DNA of 32,000 nt from Methanothermus fervidus DSM 2088. Its GTDB lineage: Archaea > Methanobacteriota > Methanobacteria > DSM-2088 > Methanothermaceae. Below, one piece after another: positions 14,986 to 22,405 of the stretch. A model generated the notes under the pieces. It saw only the letters and a program-made list of their open reading frames with translations, did not search any database and was not told the DNA's origin. Each line of letters begins with the position of its first letter. Position 1 is the first letter of the stretch. The DNA is taken from assembly GCA_000166095.1 (NCBI GenBank), contig CP002278.1, positions 1,200,001-1,232,000 of the forward strand, written 5' to 3'. A program made the position numbers and the translations under genes.

Positions 14986-16164
14986 TTGCAAAGGGTAAAT
15001 GGTGGAGTATGCACAGTCAAAAACATTAAAGCATCAGGATGTAAAAATGGAAAACATGGTGTTGGAATTTTATTAACAAAAAATTGTGAGGCTGCAGGGG
15101 TTTTTACAAAAAATAAAATAAAAGCAGCCCCTGTTAGATTAACAAAAAAAGTATTAAGAGATGGGAAACTTTCTGCAATAGTTGCCAATAGTGGCAATGC
15201 AAATTGTTTTACAGGTAAAAAAGGCATGGAAGATGCTATAAAAATGCAGGAAATAACTGCTGAGAAACTAAATTTAGATCCAAATGAGGTTGCAGTTGCA
15301 TCAACAGGTATAATTGGTTTAAGAATGCCAATGGAAAAAATAATTCCTCTTATAAATAAAGCATCTTTAAAATTAAATAATTCCCCAAAAGCTTCAAGAA
15401 AATTTGCAAAAGCAATAATGACAACAGATACATTTCCAAAAGAGTTCGCTGTTGAATTCAGGCTTAAAAATGGTGAAAAATGTAGAATTGGTGGAGTAGC
15501 TAAAGGTGCTGGTATGATATCTCCAAATATGGCTACTATGTTATCCTTTATAACCACAGATATAGATGCTAGCGCAGATGAATTATATGAGTCTCTAAAG
15601 ATTGCTGTAGATCGTAGTTTTAATATGGTGGTTGTTGATGGCGATCAAAGCACTAATGACATGGTATTAATTTCTTCAACTAGAGAATCTGGAGAAATTG
15701 ATGAAAAGTTTCAAACAGCTTTAAATTTTCTTTGTGAAGAGTTAGCTAAGATGATAGCAAAGGATGGAGAAGGTGCAACAAAATTCATAGAAGTTATAGT
15801 TAAAAATGCAAAATCGTCTGAAGATGCAAAGAAAATTGCCAAATCCATTGTGTCTTCTCCACTTGTTAAGACAGCTGTTTTTGGATCTGATCCAAATGTA
15901 GGTAGAATAATAGCAGCCATAGGATCAACAAATTGCGATGTTAAGGAAGAAAAAATAAATATAAGATTAAAATCTGTTACAGATGTTAACATTGTTAAAA
16001 ATGGTGAAATAATAAAAAGTAAAATACCCTATGCAAGAAAAGTAATGAATGAAAAAGAAATTAAAATTATTGTGGATTTAAAGTTTGGAAATTCCTCAGC
16101 AAAGGCATATGGTTGTGATTTAACATATGATTATGTTAAAATAAATTCAGAATACAGTACGTGA
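14986..16164 (+). CDS. argJ: Bifunctional ornithine acetyltransferase / N-acetylglutamate synthase ArgJ
   Basis: MTTDTFPKE and [23 protein letters not shown] (the autoprocessing ATML site) are present, with the C-terminal [15 protein letters not shown]. It uses a TTG start with GGAAGGGA upstream. Confidence 0.9.
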
Positions 16165-16168
16165 TAAA

Positions 16169-17050
16169 ATGGCAAAAAAAATAGAAGTTCTTATTGAAGC
16201 ATTGCCATACATCAAGAAATTTCATAAGAAAAAAATGCTAATAAAATACGGTGGACATGCAATGATAGATGAAGATATAATGAATTCAACTGCAAGAGAC
16301 ATTGTTTTACTTAAATATGTAGGAATAGAGCCTGTTGTTGTGCATGGTGGAGGTCCAGAGATATCTAGGGCTATGAAAAAAATGGGTAAAAAACCTAAAT
16401 TTATAGACGGATTACGAATCACTGATGAAGAAACAATGGATATTGTTAAAATGGTCTTGGTTGGAAAAATAAATACTGCAATAGTTGGTACTATATGTTT
16501 CCATGGAGGCAAGGCCGTAGGATTATCAGGAAAAGATGGCCAATTGTTAATTGCAAGAAAAAAAGCTCCTCAAGTAATTACAGATAAGAGTGGTAAAAAA
16601 AGAAAAATAGACCTTGGCTTAGTTGGTGAAATCGAAGAAATAAGACCATCTATAATAAATTTACTTACAGAAAATGATTATATTCCTGTTATATCCCCCG
16701 TGGGCGTAGATAGAAATGCTAACACTTTAAATTTAAATGCAGATACAGTAGCTGGTGAAATTGCAAGTAAAATAAATGCAGAAAAATTGATAATTTTAAC
16801 TGACGTGCCTGGGATATTGGAAGATCCTAAAGATCCAGAAACACTCATTAAAAAACTTACAGTAGAAGAATTACAAGAATTGATTAAAAATGGAACTATA
16901 AGAGGAGGAATGGTTCCAAAGGCGTTGACATGTATTGAAGCTTTGAATTCTGGAGTATCTTCAGCTCATATAATTGATGGACGCATTAAACATTCATTGT
17001 TGTTGGAGATATTTACTGATGAAGGAATTGGAACTATGATAGTTCCATAA
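16169..17050 (+). CDS. argB: Acetylglutamate kinase ArgB
   Basis: [19 protein letters not shown] and [13 protein letters not shown] are present. It lies directly downstream of argJ. Confidence 0.9.
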
Positions 17051-18023: not shown

Positions 18024-18133
18024 ATTCTCAACCAAATTTTTTATTCATAACTAAATTTAAGGTCAGTTGTGAAAATAAGTATATAGTAACTTATGTGAAG
18101 TGGTAATGTAATGGATGGAAGTAGGTGAGTCAC

Positions 18134-18463
18134 ATGAAAGTTCATTTACAAATTTTTGTTGAGATAGAAAATTTGGGACGTGTAATAAATATACTTTCTA
18201 AGGAAGGAGTTACAGGATTTTATTTAATTGAATATAGGGGAGTATCTCCACAGGAATGGGAAGGTTTTACAATTCAAGAAGATCCAAAATCTGTTGTATC
18301 ATTTATTAAAGATGTTGCACAAAATGCTATACTGGTATCTTGTGTAGTTGATAAAGAAAAGGCATATGATATTAGAAAAGAAATAAACAGGAAATTAAGC
18401 GATGTAAAATATACAATAATGGAAATTCCAATAAAAAGCATTGTTGTAAATTTTGCTGATTAG
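18134..18463 (+). CDS. Small P-II-like (GlnB-fold-like) protein of unknown function
   Basis: The beta-alpha-beta pattern KVHLQIFVEIENLGRVINILSKEGVTGFYLIEYRG is followed by a loop and a second beta-alpha-beta. The assignment is by pattern only. The ATG at 18134 has GGTGA 5 nt upstream; the track used a GTG at 18125. Confidence 0.4.
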   Translation: MKVHLQIFVEIENLGRVINILSKEGVTGFYLIEYRGVSPQEWEGFTIQEDPKSVVSFIKDVAQNAILVSCVVDKEKAYDIRKEINRKLSDVKYTIMEIPIKSIVVNFAD

Positions 18464-18472
18464 GTGATAAGT

Positions 18473-19324
18473 ATGAAAGCTGTGATACCTGCGGCGGGAT
18501 TAGGTACTAGACTTTTACCAATTACTAAAGCGCAGCCAAAGGAAATGTTACCTGTTTTTGATAAACCGGCTATTCAATATGTTGTAGAGGAGGCTGTGGC
18601 AGCAGGAATTGATGATATACTTATAATAACTGGTAAAGGTAAAAGATCAATAGAAGATCATTTTGATAGATCTTTTGAATTAGAATATTTTTTAAAAAAG
18701 AATAATAAAAATGAGATGCTTAATGAAATTGAAGAAATTTCAGAATTAGCTGATATTTATTATGTAAGACAAAGAGAACAAAAAGGATTAGGGGATGCTA
18801 TATATTGTGCGCGTAAGCATGTTGATGGAGAAACATTTGCTGTATTGTTGGGAGATACAATAACATATTCTAAGACACCATGCATTAAAAAATTAATGGA
18901 GATGTATAAGATATACAAATCCAGTATTGTAGCTGTTGAAGAGGTTCCAAGAAAAAAAGTAAGTAGGTATGGAATAATAAAGGGAAAAGAATTGAAAAAA
19001 AATATTTATTTGGTTGAAGACATGGTTGAAAAACCTAAAATTGAGGAAGCACCGTCAAACCTAGCTATAATTGGTAGATATATCCTTGAACCAGAAATAT
19101 TTGATTGTATAAAAGAAACAGGTCCAGGAGTTGGTGGTGAAATACAACTAACAGATGCAATGAGATTGCTAGATAGAGTATATGCTTACAAGTTTTCTGG
19201 GAAAACATATGATATTGGAAATAAAATAGATTGGCTAAAAACTTCTATAGAATTTGCACTTAGAGAAAAAGATATTAAAGAAAAACTAAAACCTTGGCTT
19301 TCAAAAATTATTAAACAAAACTAA
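18473..19324 (+). CDS. UTP--glucose-1-phosphate uridylyltransferase (GalU-type sugar-1-phosphate nucleotidyltransferase)
   Basis: KAVIPAAGLGTRLLPITKAQPKEMLPV, RQREQKGLGDAI and VLLGD are present. The ATG at 18473 is preceded by GGTGA; the track used a GTG at 18464. Confidence 0.85.
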   Translation: MKAVIPAAGLGTRLLPITKAQPKEMLPVFDKPAIQYVVEEAVAAGIDDILIITGKGKRSIEDHFDRSFELEYFLKKNNKNEMLNEIEEISELADIYYVRQREQKGLGDAIYCARKHVDGETFAVLLGDTITYSKTPCIKKLMEMYKIYKSSIVAVEEVPRKKVSRYGIIKGKELKKNIYLVEDMVEKPKIEEAPSNLAIIGRYILEPEIFDCIKETGPGVGGEIQLTDAMRLLDRVYAYKFSGKTYDIGNKIDWLKTSIEFALREKDIKEKLKPWLSKIIKQN

Positions 19325-19330
19325 TAAAAA
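19323..19330 (-). terminator. Oligo-T tract (TTTTTATT on the minus strand) directly after the tRNA 3' end
   Basis: The plus strand reads aataaaaa at 19323-19330, giving T5 immediately after the discriminator base. It overlaps the stop codon of the GalU-like gene on the other strand. Confidence 0.4.
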
Positions 19331-19404
19331 TCCCGGCTGCCGGATTTGAACCGGCGACCCGCGGATCTACAGTCCGCCGCTCTACCAGACTGAGCTAAGC
19401 CGGG
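19331..19404 (-). tRNA. tRNA-Tyr (anticodon GTA), 74 nt, no intron, CCA not encoded
   Basis: The minus strand folds as a cloverleaf. Acceptor CCCGGCT/AGCCGGG; D arm GCTC-AGTCTGGTA-GAGC; anticodon arm GCGGA-CTGTAGA-TCCGC (anticodon GTA); variable GGGTC; T arm GCCGG-TTCAAAT-CCGGC; discriminator A. The C1:G72 pair is the archaeal tRNA-Tyr identity pair. Confidence 0.9.
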
Positions 19405-19425
19405 ATATCTTTACTCACAAGATAT

Positions 19426-19458: not shown

Positions 19459-20649
19459 TCATGTAATCAATGCATAAATCAATGACAATATTATTGCTAT
19501 AACACCTAATTCCCATCTTCCAATTTGCCATCCAATAAAAGTCATTAAAAAGACAAAAATAAAAATCAAAATTCCTTCTCCCTTCCTATTCAATGCAAAA
19601 TTTATTAAAGTTCTAGTGAAATCTGAAGGAATAAAATAAGCATAAGTACCATTTGCAAGATTAAAAACTACTGTAGAGCTTGGATGCCAAAACTTTACAT
19701 CATCAGATAAATATGCATTTTCACCAGCTTCTTTCCTAGTTTTACCTACTCCAGCCCTTATTTTAACATCGTTTACTTGACTTTCCCAAATTGCTTCTAA
19801 TATTGCTTGTAATGCTAAATCTTTTGTTGGCATACTTGCAACCAAATCATCGCCACCTTTACGATAACCTTCTATTTTTCCTTCTCGTTCTTCGATTCTT
19901 TTCTTTATTTTTTCCATCACTAAACTTAAAAAGTCTCTACCATATTTCTCAATAAATTTTGTGGAATTTATTACATCAAGAAAAAGATAATTGCCATGAG
20001 TAGAATATGTTTCACCAATTTTTGAAATTTTTGATGGAAAGAGAAGTGCAAATTCCCCACCAAATTTTGTAAAAGCCACTCCTGGTATTTCACCGACTTC
20101 ATTAGTTAACTTTATAGCTCTTTCTACAGCTGCTGCAGCGGTCATTCCTACGGCAGCCCGCACATTTAAATTTTTCTCACCACCCAATGCTATAAGCTTT
20201 ATTGCTATTTTTATTGCTTCATTTTTTGATATTAATCTTGCTAATATTTCATTAGGACCTTTTTCTACAATTTCTCCTCCTTCATTTTTGATTGTATCAA
20301 TAAATTCATTCACATCAGCTTTTTCTGGAAGTTCAACATATAGATATCTATCACTGCCAACAATTATATCACTTAAAAGTGCACGTTCATTTATATCTTT
20401 CTCAGGTTTTTTTAATTCAACAAATCTACCATTTCGAGGCAAAGCAAAATTTAGTTCTTCAACTAAACTTTCAAATATGCTATTAGAATCAATTTTTGCC
20501 TTTTTAAGTTCTATCAACATAGTTTTTGTATCGTTCATCATTTTAACATATTTTTCTTCGTCTTCTGTAGTTGGACGATAATCAGTCCCAATACTAATAA
20601 TCCTTTTTCCAATAAAAAAACTTAAAATAAAGCGTAGGATCCTACCCAT
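19459..20649 (-). CDS. Membrane-anchored protein with two tandem GGDEF/Cas10-palm-like (nucleotidyl cyclase fold) modules, the second with a GGDD motif; two C-terminal TM helices
   Basis: Residues 219-303 (GNYLFLDVINSTKFIEKYGRDF...GYRKGGDDLVASMP...VKIRAGVGKT) align by eye with the GGDEF-domain order LDIDhFKxiND..G...R.GGEEF..lmP...isiGv. Residues 100-170 (RYLYVEL...EKGPNEILARL...NVRAAVGMT) repeat the same order without the acidic motif. GGT GGC GAT GAT was verified at 19846-19857. The C-terminal GILIFIFVFLMTFIGWQIG and LGVIAIILSLIYALIT are hydrophobic helices. The CDS call is strong; the functional call is inference. Confidence 0.55.
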   Translation of the reverse strand: MGRILRFILSFFIGKRIISIGTDYRPTTEDEEKYVKMMNDTKTMLIELKKAKIDSNSIFESLVEELNFALPRNGRFVELKKPEKDINERALLSDIIVGSDRYLYVELPEKADVNEFIDTIKNEGGEIVEKGPNEILARLISKNEAIKIAIKLIALGGEKNLNVRAAVGMTAAAAVERAIKLTNEVGEIPGVAFTKFGGEFALLFPSKISKIGETYSTHGNYLFLDVINSTKFIEKYGRDFLSLVMEKIKKRIEEREGKIEGYRKGGDDLVASMPTKDLALQAILEAIWESQVNDVKIRAGVGKTRKEAGENAYLSDDVKFWHPSSTVVFNLANGTYAYFIPSDFTRTLINFALNRKGEGILIFIFVFLMTFIGWQIGRWELGVIAIILSLIYALIT

Positions 20650-21669
20650 CTACTTTTGTCCTCCTTTTTCCAATGTAACCTCAAATTCACCAGGATTTTC
20701 AAGTAATACACTAGGTCTCACAGCAACTATTGGAAATCTCCAACTACCAATTCTTGCGGCAATTGTACTTGCTATATTCCTGGAATTCCTTTTTACCAAA
20801 GCATAATCATGATTATTAACTGTTATATTGACATTGTATGGTGATTCTTCCATTACATCTTCTGAAGGCAACACATTTAATTCAAAATGGTTTTTCCGCA
20901 TGAAAATATCATTTCTAACAGCTACAAGTGGACTATATTCTAATTCTAAATTATCTCTGACAGTTACAGCTATGTTGCCAGCATATTTAACAACTTTTTT
21001 ATAATCTTGTGGATTAACAAGAACAAATATTATATAGTTTCCTTCTTCAATATTTTCAACCATCTCTAGAACATTTTTTAAGACAGGAATTTTCATGAAC
21101 ACTTCTTCAACTTTTGACTCTAATCCTTCCTCATAAACCTTAATTCTACTTATAGCTTCTTTAGCTATTGCTATGCCACTAAGCTTTTTCCCATGTCTTA
21201 CATTATAGTAATCAAAACCTTTGTCTTTAAATTTGTTTAAAGCATCTAAAGTGATTTCTTTTATTATGTCTTTGACCTTCCTTACTTTTGGAATCTTTCC
21301 AATTACTATTTTATTATTTTCAAATGTGTAGGGAACTCTTCTACTATCAATATTTTTAAATTCATCTCTAAACTCTCTAAAATTGTCATTTGACAATATT
21401 TTTGCATCTTCTTCTTCTGCCAACTTTAAAATATAATGATCTGCATTTGTACCTGCAGGTACTTCCTTAATTATCCCCTTTTTTATGTATTCCTTATATT
21501 TCTCTTCATCATCAATCTTATGTTTCAAAGAAGCGTCAGCAACGACTATCGGTTTAAAACCAAGTTTTTTTACAGCCTTTATAGCTTCGATAATTCTTTT
21601 CATTATCGCCTTATTCTGATGGTGGGCAATATTTGATGCATCTATAATCATTTTCAATGGATCACCCAT
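20650..21669 (-). CDS. Zc3h12a-like NYN/PIN-type ribonuclease domain protein with an uncharacterised ~190-aa C-terminal region
   Basis: The N-terminal region reads KMIIDASNIAH...GFKPIVVADASLKHKID...GTNADHYILKLAEEEDAKILSNDNFREF. This matches the acidic-residue pattern of the RNase_Zc3h12a/NYN fold (D at strand 1, DxxxD-like, SNDxxR). I recognise no motif in the rest. Confidence 0.65.
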   Translation of the reverse strand: MGDPLKMIIDASNIAHHQNKAIMKRIIEAIKAVKKLGFKPIVVADASLKHKIDDEEKYKEYIKKGIIKEVPAGTNADHYILKLAEEEDAKILSNDNFREFRDEFKNIDSRRVPYTFENNKIVIGKIPKVRKVKDIIKEITLDALNKFKDKGFDYYNVRHGKKLSGIAIAKEAISRIKVYEEGLESKVEEVFMKIPVLKNVLEMVENIEEGNYIIFVLVNPQDYKKVVKYAGNIAVTVRDNLELEYSPLVAVRNDIFMRKNHFELNVLPSEDVMEESPYNVNITVNNHDYALVKRNSRNIASTIAARIGSWRFPIVAVRPSVLLENPGEFEVTLEKGGQK

Positions 21670-22405
21670 TTTTTCTTTTATATTTACCTAATATTTTCAT
21701 TTTTCCTTCTACTTCACATAATTTTACTTTTATTTCTTTCTCATTCACCAAATACACATTATAACTATTTGGATTTTTTGCTCTAAGTGATGGAGATGAA
21801 ACTGTACCTGCAGTTGCAAAAACACAACCTTCTAAATTCCATGAATATGGTACATGTCTATGTCCACAAACAACAAGATCCACATCGTATTTAACTAAAG
21901 ATTCTAGAATATCACCAGCGTCAAGAAGTACATTTCTTTCTCGTCCTGTTTTTGGAACGGGGATGATATGATGATGCAAGGCTACAATTTTGAATTTATT
22001 TTTTGCTTTTTTCAATTCTTTTTCAAGCCATTTTTGCTGTTCTCTTCCTATCTTTCCACAATCTAAATCAGGTTCACTACTGTCAAGTCCAATAACAACA
22101 AACTTTTTATTCTTATTTTTAAGAACACCTGATCTTGGACCAATAACTTCTTCAAATACTTCATAACCTACGTGTCTAGCATCATGATTTCCTGGTACAG
22201 TTATAGTAGGTATAATCTCTGAAATTTCATCTAAATATTTTTTTGCTTCTATAAATTCCTGATAATAACCATTGTTTGTTATATCTCCACTTACAATAAC
22301 TACATCAGGGCGGATGTTTTTAACCTGGTTCAGAGCTTTTTTTAATAATTTTTCCTTAAATTTGAATTCACCCACATGAAAATCTGAAAGGTGGGCAATT
22401 ATCAA
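21662..22405 (-). CDS. Calcineurin-like metallophosphoesterase, CpdA/Icc-like (class III phosphodiesterase-type motif set)
   Basis: The motifs are in canonical order: HLSDFH, VVIVSGDITNNG, VPGNHD, ALHHH, VVCGHRHVP. It uses a TTG start abutting the NAC stop (TAATTG). The substrate cannot be inferred from sequence. Confidence 0.75.
   Translation of the reverse strand: MIIAHLSDFHVGEFKFKEKLLKKALNQVKNIRPDVVIVSGDITNNGYYQEFIEAKKYLDEISEIIPTITVPGNHDARHVGYEVFEEVIGPRSGVLKNKNKKFVVIGLDSSEPDLDCGKIGREQQKWLEKELKKAKNKFKIVALHHHIIPVPKTGRERNVLLDAGDILESLVKYDVDLVVCGHRHVPYSWNLEGCVFATAGTVSSPSLRAKNPNSYNVYLVNEKEIKVKLCEVEGKMKILGKYKRKNG

Follow-up and report, generated by a model that had tools for sequence, protein, structure and literature searches.

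An internally duplicated, membrane-anchored palm protein of Methanobacteriales and Methanopyrus, a candidate single-chain nucleotide cyclase

We examined a gene of Methanothermus fervidus DSM 2088 that lies on the minus strand at 19459..20649 of the window, by which we mean the whole analyzed stretch of 32,000 nucleotides (nt) of GenBank contig CP002278.1, positions 1,200,001 to 1,232,000; coordinates below are those of the window. In the list of open reading frames (ORFs), the gene encodes a protein of 396 amino acids (aa) with two transmembrane (TM) segments, and it corresponds to orthologous group OG0001214 of Lupo et al. (mSystems 2025, PMC11915815). We found that this tandem-palm protein carries two copies of an RRM-like palm module, the second with a full set of acidic residues and the first with a partial one, followed by a C-terminal membrane anchor, and that its gene has a fixed partner directly upstream. 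We put at about even the chance that this duplicated protein works as a nucleotide cyclase, a pseudo-heterodimer within one chain that is tethered to the membrane, its activity being the part that we infer.

A preliminary description of the sequence had proposed that two segments of the protein share one order of motifs, and we located all six of the motifs that it quoted at the residues it had assigned to them. The segments proved to be homologous modules at residues ~100-203 and ~219-339. Aligned as single sequences by the Smith-Waterman method, residues 61-200 and 201-345 scored 58, compared with a mean of 29.1 ± 4.9 for shuffled sequences (z = 5.8; 0 of 2000 shuffles reached 58), and BLASTP between the two palm segments gave E = 1e-5. 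Profile comparison was carried out by hhalign with sub-alignments of both modules taken from an alignment of 31 homologues (alignment A1), and it matched module 1 to module 2 with a probability of 96.4-96.5% and E values of 1.3e-9 over 79 columns and 8.5e-10 over 109 columns. As negative controls, we ran the first 98 residues of the protein, as well as the NYN and the X domain of its partner, against the palm modules; the nine hhalign comparisons gave E = 0.1-0.6. We also built an AlphaFold2 (AF2) model of the protein on A1 (predicted local distance difference test, pLDDT, 85.6; predicted template-modeling score, pTM, 0.75). In this model, residues 102-203 and 220-339 have the same element order, β1-α1-β2-β3-α2-β4-α3-β5-β6, with near-identical lengths except for α1, which is longer in module 2 and accounts for the single long gap of the hhalign alignment. 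With a repeat at E ~1e-9 and two halves of like topology, the protein contains a palm module of the RRM-like cyclase type that has been duplicated in tandem. Module 1 (residues 100-203; 20041..20352, minus strand) is delimited by hhalign, AF2 topology, and conservation and is partly degenerate; module 2 (residues 219-339; 19633..19995, minus strand) is delimited by a profile match to Rv1900c, by Foldseek, and by invariant residues and is putatively catalytic.

The putative catalytic residues of module 2 are strictly conserved. GGDD (G265 G266 D267 D268, in the β2-β3 hairpin) and an Asp on strand 1 (D225, in N-Y-L-F-x-D) were each present in 120 of 120 full-length homologues, and the motif R-x-G-x-G-x-x-R-x-E-A-x-E, which runs from R298 to E310 and leads from strand β4 into helix α3, was present in 118. 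The minus strand indeed encodes GGDD at 19846..19857, as had been reported. The D225 codon, for a candidate metal-binding Asp within NYLF-x-D-x-x-D-S-T-x-F, lies at 19975..19977 (coordinates verified; Rv1900c alignment), and the R298-E310 motif lies at 19720..19758, both on the minus strand. All three elements are kept in the divergent member from Methanopyrus sp. KOL6 (P0128), so the acidic hairpin, far from being replaced in orthologues, is held throughout the family. Judged from conservation, the invariance of D225 and GGDD across the split between Methanobacteriales and Methanopyrus argues for retained catalysis.

Module 1 follows a different pattern. Its positions matching G266 and D267 vary freely (e.g., KSST, QSST, or ESRS), the position matching D268 is an invariant Glu (E134), Methanopyrus included, and the position matching D225 is Glu (E106) in all Methanobacteriales and Thr in Methanopyrus. 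The module also has an invariant set of its own (R101, E129, S141, K142, G168, T170, E176, R177, K195, and E199) and a mirror of the strand-4 motif, R-A-A-V-G-M-T-x-A-A-x-x-E-R. The preliminary claim that the strand-1 Asp and the acidic pair of GGDD are kept in the second segment only, therefore, holds for the complete set (D225 and D267/D268), which occurs in module 2 alone, but module 1 retains part of it (E106 and E134). By its residues, module 1 is correctly called degenerate, although not totally so; it is under strong constraint, as would suit one half of a site for substrate binding or regulation better than a relic in decay.

The N-terminal region (residues 1-96; 20362..20649, minus strand; delimited by AF2 secondary structure and conservation) consists of a short amphipathic helix (residues 2-13) and a strongly conserved β-α-β-α-β-α domain with invariant residues G21, T22, E31, Y34, V35, N39, T41, and T43. 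By hhalign, this domain showed no similarity to either palm module. A PADLOC match of residues 27-118 to CARF3 was judged to be due to chance because it occurred in 1 of 31 members.

At the other end, the protein closes with a TM hairpin (TM1, residues 356-376; TM2, residues 380-395; 19465..19584, minus strand). Kyte-Doolittle windows exceeded 1.6 at residues 356-396 alone, AF2 placed helices at 356-376 and 380-395 with a loop of three to four residues between them, and the C terminus was hydrophobic in 31 of 31 aligned members. The basic residues R354 and K355 precede TM1 and there is no signal peptide, which together predict that the palm modules are cytoplasmic. In the model there is no extracellular sensor domain, the outside part being a short loop. 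The C-terminal two-TM anchor, as first described, is thus supported by hydropathy and modeled helices, and an independent study predicted one to two TM segments for five orthologues (PMC11915815).

To place the protein among known families, we compared the AF2 model and the A1 profile with structure and sequence databases. Both modules have the RRM-like β-α-β-β-α-β palm core, and Foldseek gave a probability of 1.00 for many cyclase domains. Against the Protein Data Bank (PDB), class III cyclases came first (E = 1e-5 to 1e-4), with a target-normalized template-modeling score of ~0.5 for Ma1120 and Rv1900c; the matches included the tandem-domain adenylyl cyclase (AC) AC9 and soluble AC, and GTP cyclohydrolase III (2qv6) was matched at E = 8e-4. 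Class III cyclases and GTP cyclohydrolase III made up the top 50 PDB matches by Foldseek, from which Cas10, mCpol, and GGDEF chains were absent. When the A1 profile was searched against all PDB sequences (E ≤ 10), class III cyclase domains alone were found, led by Rv1900c (E = 0.012) and then Ma1120. In the Rv1900c alignment (residues 219-314), D225 and D267 fall on the two metal-binding Asp residues, D225 on the Asp of FTDIVGST and D267 on that of "GD", R/K263 falls on the base-specifying Lys position, and strand 4 corresponds to V-R-I-G-I-H. PADLOC returned recurrent weak matches to PycC, the Pycsar cyclase (best 4e-4), NCBIfam returned sub-threshold matches to LipJ, and a viral structure library gave weak guanylate-cyclase and GGDEF matches and nothing stronger. 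The Methanopyrus orthologue matches Gene3D 3.30.70.1230 and SSF55073, "nucleotide cyclase" (PMC11915815). The protein is an isolated branch of the nucleotide-cyclase/GGDEF/Cas10 palm superfamily, marginally nearest to the class III and Pycsar cyclases.

The protein does not belong to mCpol, Cas10, GGDEF, class III as Pfam defines it, or GTP cyclohydrolase III. No Pfam model matched any of the 31 members; PF00211 gave no match at E ≤ 10, and neither PF00990, PF05165, nor the mCpol model PF18182 gave one. A GGDEF diguanylate cyclase was rejected on its motif, which here is GGDD followed by L/F-I/V in place of GG(D/E)EF, and on the lack of a PF00990 match in the 31 members. Among archaeal proteins, a tandem palm with a GGDN hairpin is known only from GTP cyclohydrolase III, and we therefore built a dedicated profile of 23 of its sequences and compared it with A1 by hhalign; at the sequence level, we rejected this assignment at E = 0.096 over 12 columns at the hairpin. 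Low-scoring matches to TIGR01123 (ilvE; 14-18 bits, cut-off 250) recurred at residues 193-261 in 10 of the 31 members and were attributed to chance. Single-sequence searches of Pfam, NCBIfam, and PDB yielded noise, apart from a weak match to mCpol that is weighed below; their matches to hemagglutinin HA2 were put down to chance coiled-coil similarity.

The tandem-palm gene is accompanied by a fixed partner. In the window, the gene directly upstream encodes a protein of 339 aa with an NYN (Zc3h12a-like) ribonuclease domain at residues 1-130 (21280..21669, minus strand; Pfam PF11977, E = 2.4e-23; ZC3H12A/C and KHNYN in PDB at ~4e-5) and a C-terminal region of ~210 residues, here termed the X domain, at residues 131-339 (20653..21279, minus strand). 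We located neighbors by tblastn in 84 loci and took as denominators the loci with enough sequence. In all 79 such loci, the next gene upstream, on the same strand, encodes a homologue of the X domain. The NYN domain is found in 78 of 79, a metallophosphoesterase gene upstream in 73 of 74, and a NAC gene in 71 of 72, the sole exception in each case being Methanopyrus. There, the upstream gene encodes 238 aa without an NYN domain, and its match to the window's NYN protein (E = 3e-29) covers residues 133-331 of the latter. The conserved pair is thus the X domain and the tandem palm, with NYN as an addition of Methanobacteriales. At the junction of the two genes (20638..20670, minus strand; read from the sequence), the partner ends in TAG and the start codon ATG of the tandem-palm gene follows at once, with GGAGG upstream as ribosome-binding site, an arrangement that indicates translational coupling; in other genera, the two genes abut or overlap by 8 nt. 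No relative of the X domain was found in Pfam or PDB. AF2 modeled the NYN part of the partner confidently and the X domain (partner residues 161-339) at pLDDT <50. We considered X as a third copy of the palm and rejected this because hhalign against both modules gave E = 0.3-0.6.

The metallophosphoesterase gene (21662..22405, minus strand) encodes a calcineurin-like enzyme of the GpdQ/Rv0805/CpdA-like branch (Pfam Metallophos, E = 5e-23; PDB GpdQ, 1.6e-11, and Rv0805/Icc, 4e-7). Its NCBIfam match to CpdA (3.4e-16) is sub-threshold, as is that to SpdA, and its nearest relatives are class III phosphodiesterases of cyclic nucleoside monophosphates and GpdQ. Its strongest NCBIfam match (1.8e-22) is to DS9_1, an "anti-phage phosphoesterase", far below the cut-off, and PADLOC matched it to PDC-S10 and PDC-S60; these three matches probably reflect generic metallophosphoesterase similarity. 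With NYN, NAC, and arcTGT, the neighborhood includes several RNA and translation genes.

We next consider how far the family extends. A word-indexed search returned 498 homologues, all of ~400 aa, from Methanobacteriales, named "hypothetical protein", and lacking a Pfam domain. An exhaustive hidden Markov model (HMM) scan of 1.84 billion cluster representatives added only fragments of the family itself and the Methanopyrus member (P0128, E = 1.4e-34); two matches to repeat proteins in that scan (P0173 and P0175, E ~1e-4) were set aside as probably spurious. Relatives occur in 207 genomes (one genome per GTDB species), essentially all of them Methanobacteriales, and no copies were found in phage and plasmid collections. 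One protein in a Logan assembly matches the tandem-palm protein at 99%; otherwise, the best identity outside the window is 55%. The window proteins generally are ~50-62% identical to their best homologues in reference genomes, and 99% matches occur in Logan assemblies alone, so the window seems to derive from a divergent lineage near Methanobacteriales that these reference genomes do not cover. The tandem-palm gene belongs to the core genome of Methanobacteriales and Methanopyrus, in which it is inherited vertically; it is not a defense gene. Two loci with the full NYN/tandem-palm block (L034 and L036) carry the labels Bipolaricaulota and Methanomicrobiales as metagenome-assembled genomes, labels that probably reflect contamination of the bins by Methanobacteriales contigs. 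Three metagenomic proteins (P0137, P0152, and P0161) join tandem-palm fragments to unrelated sequence, e.g., a vWA-like N terminus to the last 65 residues, and are likely chimeras of assembly or gene calling, not domain fusions.

Pseudomurein walls are found in two orders, Methanobacteriales and Methanopyrales, and a pangenomic screen for pseudomurein genes had recovered the same gene pair as "cluster D" (Lupo et al., mSystems 2025, PMC11915815). There, OG0001213 (Zc3h12a-like NYN) and OG0001214 ("Nucleotide cyclase", more than one TM segment) were found to be syntenic and specific to pseudomurein archaea; cluster D was listed and then set aside, the authors judging it unrelated to pseudomurein (PMC11915815). 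The cyclase label derives from Gene3D/SSF matches on the Methanopyrus member alone, and the Methanopyrus member of OG0001213 has no annotated domain (PMC11915815, supplement), findings with which our results agree. We found nothing further on the gene pair in the literature, searches by locus tag and accession included. Published work thus already covers the existence of the family, the superfamily to which its fold belongs, and the pairing of the two genes. The internal duplication, the pattern of one active and one degenerate module, the identity of the conserved partner domain, and the phosphodiesterase-like neighbor appear to be undescribed.

We propose the following mechanism. Module 2 would form a two-metal center from D225 on strand 1 and D267/D268 in the GGDD hairpin, at which a 3′-OH would be activated to attack the α-phosphate of a nucleoside triphosphate. 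Module 1, without a complete acidic triad, could supply the other half of a composite substrate or acceptor pocket, a role that we liken to that of C2 for C1 in mammalian ACs and of Palm1 for Palm2 in Cas10. The two-TM hairpin, having no outside domain, would hold, and possibly dimerize, the enzyme on the cytoplasmic side of the membrane. As product, we envisage either a cyclic mononucleotide or a short oligonucleotide, cyclic or linear; the X domain of the partner, which is translated together with the enzyme, would detect it, and in Methanobacteriales the NYN ribonuclease would provide the output. The CpdA/Rv0805-like metallophosphoesterase is a candidate for the phosphodiesterase that degrades the product. 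At its fullest, the proposal would make the three genes a hitherto unrecognized, lineage-defining second-messenger module of the methanogens with pseudomurein walls, in which a single-chain membrane cyclase with a composite pocket makes a nucleotide signal, possibly a noncanonical cyclic nucleotide or oligonucleotide, the X domain as a new receptor fold gates the NYN ribonuclease, and the CpdA-like enzyme clears the signal, linking the state of the envelope or membrane to RNA turnover; we regard this extended form as doubtful.

Several observations weigh against the assignment as a cyclase. No NCBIfam model was matched at threshold, and all matches to characterized cyclases are weak. AC9, soluble AC, and GTP cyclohydrolase III superpose on the model through one domain alone (template-modeling score ~0.2, rmsd 15-20 Å), so the two domains of the model do not appear to be arranged as in the known head-to-tail cyclase dimer. 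Class III cyclases have a dimerization-arm hairpin after strand 4, followed by a helix with the transition-state Asn and Arg, whereas GGDEF, Cas10, mCpol, and GTP cyclohydrolase III have a helix directly after strand 4. In the AF2 model, strand 297-302 runs straight into helix 305-317, in which there is no equivalent Asn-x-x-x-Arg; the transition-state residues of class III are thus without obvious equivalents. Moreover, GTP cyclohydrolase III is itself a tandem-palm protein and is a hydrolase, not a cyclase. A receptor role of the X domain is purely conjectural, and both the metallophosphoesterase and NYN are missing from the Methanopyrus locus.

Four other explanations have to be weighed against a membrane cyclase. 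The protein could be a membrane nucleotidyl transferase or hydrolase of pseudomurein or envelope-precursor metabolism, acting, e.g., on uridine diphosphate (UDP)-linked amino-acid or peptide precursors; in a more unusual variant, the tandem palm may make nucleotide-activated amino-acid or peptide precursors of pseudomurein. The restriction of the family to the two pseudomurein-walled orders (207 Methanobacteriales species genomes and Methanopyrus), its recovery in a pseudomurein-specific screen (PMC11915815), and the membrane anchor with a cytoplasmic catalytic part would all suit such an enzyme, and GTP cyclohydrolase III, a structural match at E = 8e-4, is a precedent for a tandem palm that is not a cyclase. 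However, the gene never occurs in the pseudomurein clusters A or B, and cluster D was judged unrelated to the wall (PMC11915815); other lineage-specific groups of the same screen, the mcr genes among them, clearly have no part in the wall, which makes the phyletic pattern alone weak evidence. The RNA and translation genes next to it (NYN ribonuclease, NAC, and arcTGT) and the failure of the GTP cyclohydrolase III profile to match (E = 0.096) point away from the envelope as well, and we consider this role unlikely. Those same neighbors suggest instead an RNA-directed enzyme, either a Thg1-like or template-independent nucleotidyl transferase or one resembling RNA 3′-end cyclases or ligases, that works with NYN in RNA processing or repair near the membrane. 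Tight coupling to the NYN ribonuclease in 78 of 79 loci, the cluster with arcTGT and NAC, and an RRM-type palm in common with Thg1 and the polymerases (PMC2904730) speak for it. But the Methanopyrus partner lacks NYN, so the ribonuclease is not the conserved core; matches to Thg1 or polymerases stayed within noise in sequence and structure, and the AF2 model has no fingers or thumb. We hold an RNA-directed enzyme to be improbable.

We attach the same low likelihood to a protein without catalysis, in which both palms would serve as a nucleotide-binding receptor or scaffold, like degenerate GGDEF domains, and tether NYN-X to the membrane. Module 1 is degenerate yet highly conserved, translational coupling suggests a stoichiometric complex, and neither Pfam nor NCBIfam establishes membership in an enzymatic family. 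Nevertheless, D225 and GGDD are invariant in all 120 homologues and across the deepest split, and degenerate receptor palms usually lose these residues. The preliminary description had favored a Cas10-like core closest in spirit to mCpol. Read in this way, the protein would be a minimal CRISPR polymerase making cyclic oligoadenylate or cyclic di-AMP in antiviral signaling, here with its own membrane anchor. GGDD in the second palm does reproduce the layout of Cas10, the helix after β4 resembles GGDEF, Cas10, and mCpol rather than class III, mCpol systems use membrane effectors, and residues 246-308 gave a weak match to the mCpol HMM (E = 0.087). That model (NF033576), however, reached 13.5 bits against a cut-off of 40 and did so in 1 of 31 members, the window protein alone. 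No Cas10 or mCpol chain appeared in the PDB sequence search (E ≤ 10) or among the top 50 Foldseek matches, both of which favor class III, and no defense model was matched apart from the weak PycC. mCpol is a ~14-kDa oligomer with a single palm. The window contains no CRISPR arrays, cas genes, or defense-island signature, in agreement with the lack of CRISPR context first noted, and no cas genes or CRISPR arrays were found in the 84 related loci. Nor does the family behave as an odd defense-type module: it is a chromosomal core gene in a housekeeping operon fixed across the order, not part of a variable island, it has no phage or plasmid copies, and it has no CARF, SAVED, or 2TM-beta partner. 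We therefore regard membership in Cas10/mCpol antiviral signaling as very unlikely and retain the membrane-tethered cyclase as our working assignment.

The remainder of the window has the character of an ordinary chromosomal region. Its G+C content is ~31% (AT-rich), and its genes are housekeeping genes, namely those for CobN, a homocysteine-synthesis enzyme, TldD, the NOG1 GTPase, ArgJ, ArgB, arcTGT, and NAC. Past the tandem-palm gene, 53 nt downstream and likewise on the minus strand, comes a gene for tRNA-Tyr (GTA) at 19330-19405, whose 3′ end is overlapped by a hairpin resembling a terminator. Methanothermobacter and Methanobrevibacter instead have at this place a small unannotated ORF (76-122 aa) and then argJ; in Methanothermobacter (locus L001, 7556-9643), argJ-argB lies downstream on the same strand. 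In the window, by comparison, argJ-argB lies at 14986-17050 on the plus strand, ~2.4 kb from the tandem-palm gene and opposite to it, with genes for a dehydrogenase, a PII-like protein, and a nucleotidyl transferase in between. This placement is a local rearrangement relative to known Methanobacteriales. The PII homologue (112 aa; 18125-18463, plus strand; Pfam Nit_Regul_Hom, E = 4.7e-47) is encoded directly before the nucleotidyl transferase (18464-19324), with adjacent stop and start codons, which suggests that the two genes form a coupled pair.

To our knowledge, nucleotide second-messenger signaling in methanogens is almost unexplored. An order-specific and universally conserved protein that is cyclase-like and membrane-anchored, with intact putative catalytic residues and a fixed partner offers a testable entry point to it. 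The family covers Methanobrevibacter smithii and rumen methanogens and has no homologue elsewhere in ~1.8 billion representatives, a lineage restriction that makes it a candidate target for methane mitigation or anti-archaeal work. It also provides a case, independent of Cas10 and the mammalian cyclases, of one active palm joined to one degenerate palm, in which the duplication is still visible in the sequence. What we describe is plausibly a new archaeal signaling module, although its fold class is familiar and the gene pair was already in print.

Among known systems, the tandem-palm protein most resembles the class III cyclases Rv1900c and Ma1120, with which it shares the strand-1 motif F-x-D-(I/V)-x-x-S-T, the G-D hairpin Asp, R-x-G-(I/V)-(G/H) on strand 4, and R/K263 at the base-specifying Lys position; membrane anchoring, too, is common in class III. 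It differs from them in its GGDD hairpin, which is G-D-x in class III, and in lacking the arm hairpin and the Asn/Arg helix. As in the C1-C2 arrangement of mammalian AC and in soluble AC, two homologous palms combine one active with one degenerate site, but the degenerate module comes first here, whereas in mammalian AC the Asp pair is on C1. With Cas10, the likeness is one of architecture only, two palm domains with GGDD in the second; the HD domain, D2/D4, zinc finger, and CRISPR locus are lacking, and there is no significant match in sequence or structure. The echo of Cas10 and of C1/C2 cyclases in a degenerate-plus-active tandem is therefore valid as an analogy. mCpol, the OptS of Panoptes, likewise has a palm with an acidic hairpin, makes signaling nucleotides, and is associated in Panoptes with a membrane protein. 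It is a single palm of ~14 kDa that oligomerizes, and its operon has one other gene, for a 2TM-beta or CARF-TM effector (PMC12657218, PMC12657230). The tandem-palm protein, in contrast, has 396 aa, two palms, an extra N-terminal domain, its own TM hairpin, and an NYN-X partner, and unlike Cas10, mCpol, and Panoptes, it comes without CARF or a 2TM-beta effector, as a core gene of housekeeping type outside any defense island.

GTP cyclohydrolase III (ArfA, MJ0145; PF05165, "GGDN") is a further archaeal single-chain tandem palm, with a GGD(N/D) hairpin, a K/R-A-G-I-G strand in its second module, and a local motif alignment to the tandem-palm protein. Unlike the tandem-palm protein, it lacks both a TM anchor and an additional domain at the N terminus, and the strand-1 Asp is kept in its first module. 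Methanobacteriales own a bona fide GTP cyclohydrolase III of ~250 aa. Many GTP cyclohydrolase III proteins of the Methanobrevibacter type (P0326, P0334, P0341, etc.) carry a precomputed match to PF18182 beside that to PF05165. We take PF18182 to stand for mCpol, in which case mCpol would have a closer relative in GTP cyclohydrolase III than in the tandem-palm family. Finally, the diadenylate cyclase system CdaA-CdaR-GlmM of Firmicutes, although the catalytic DAC fold of CdaA is unrelated to the palm, offers a purely functional analogy: a TM-anchored synthase of a second messenger whose gene, in organisms with a cell wall, shares a fixed core operon with that of a regulatory partner.

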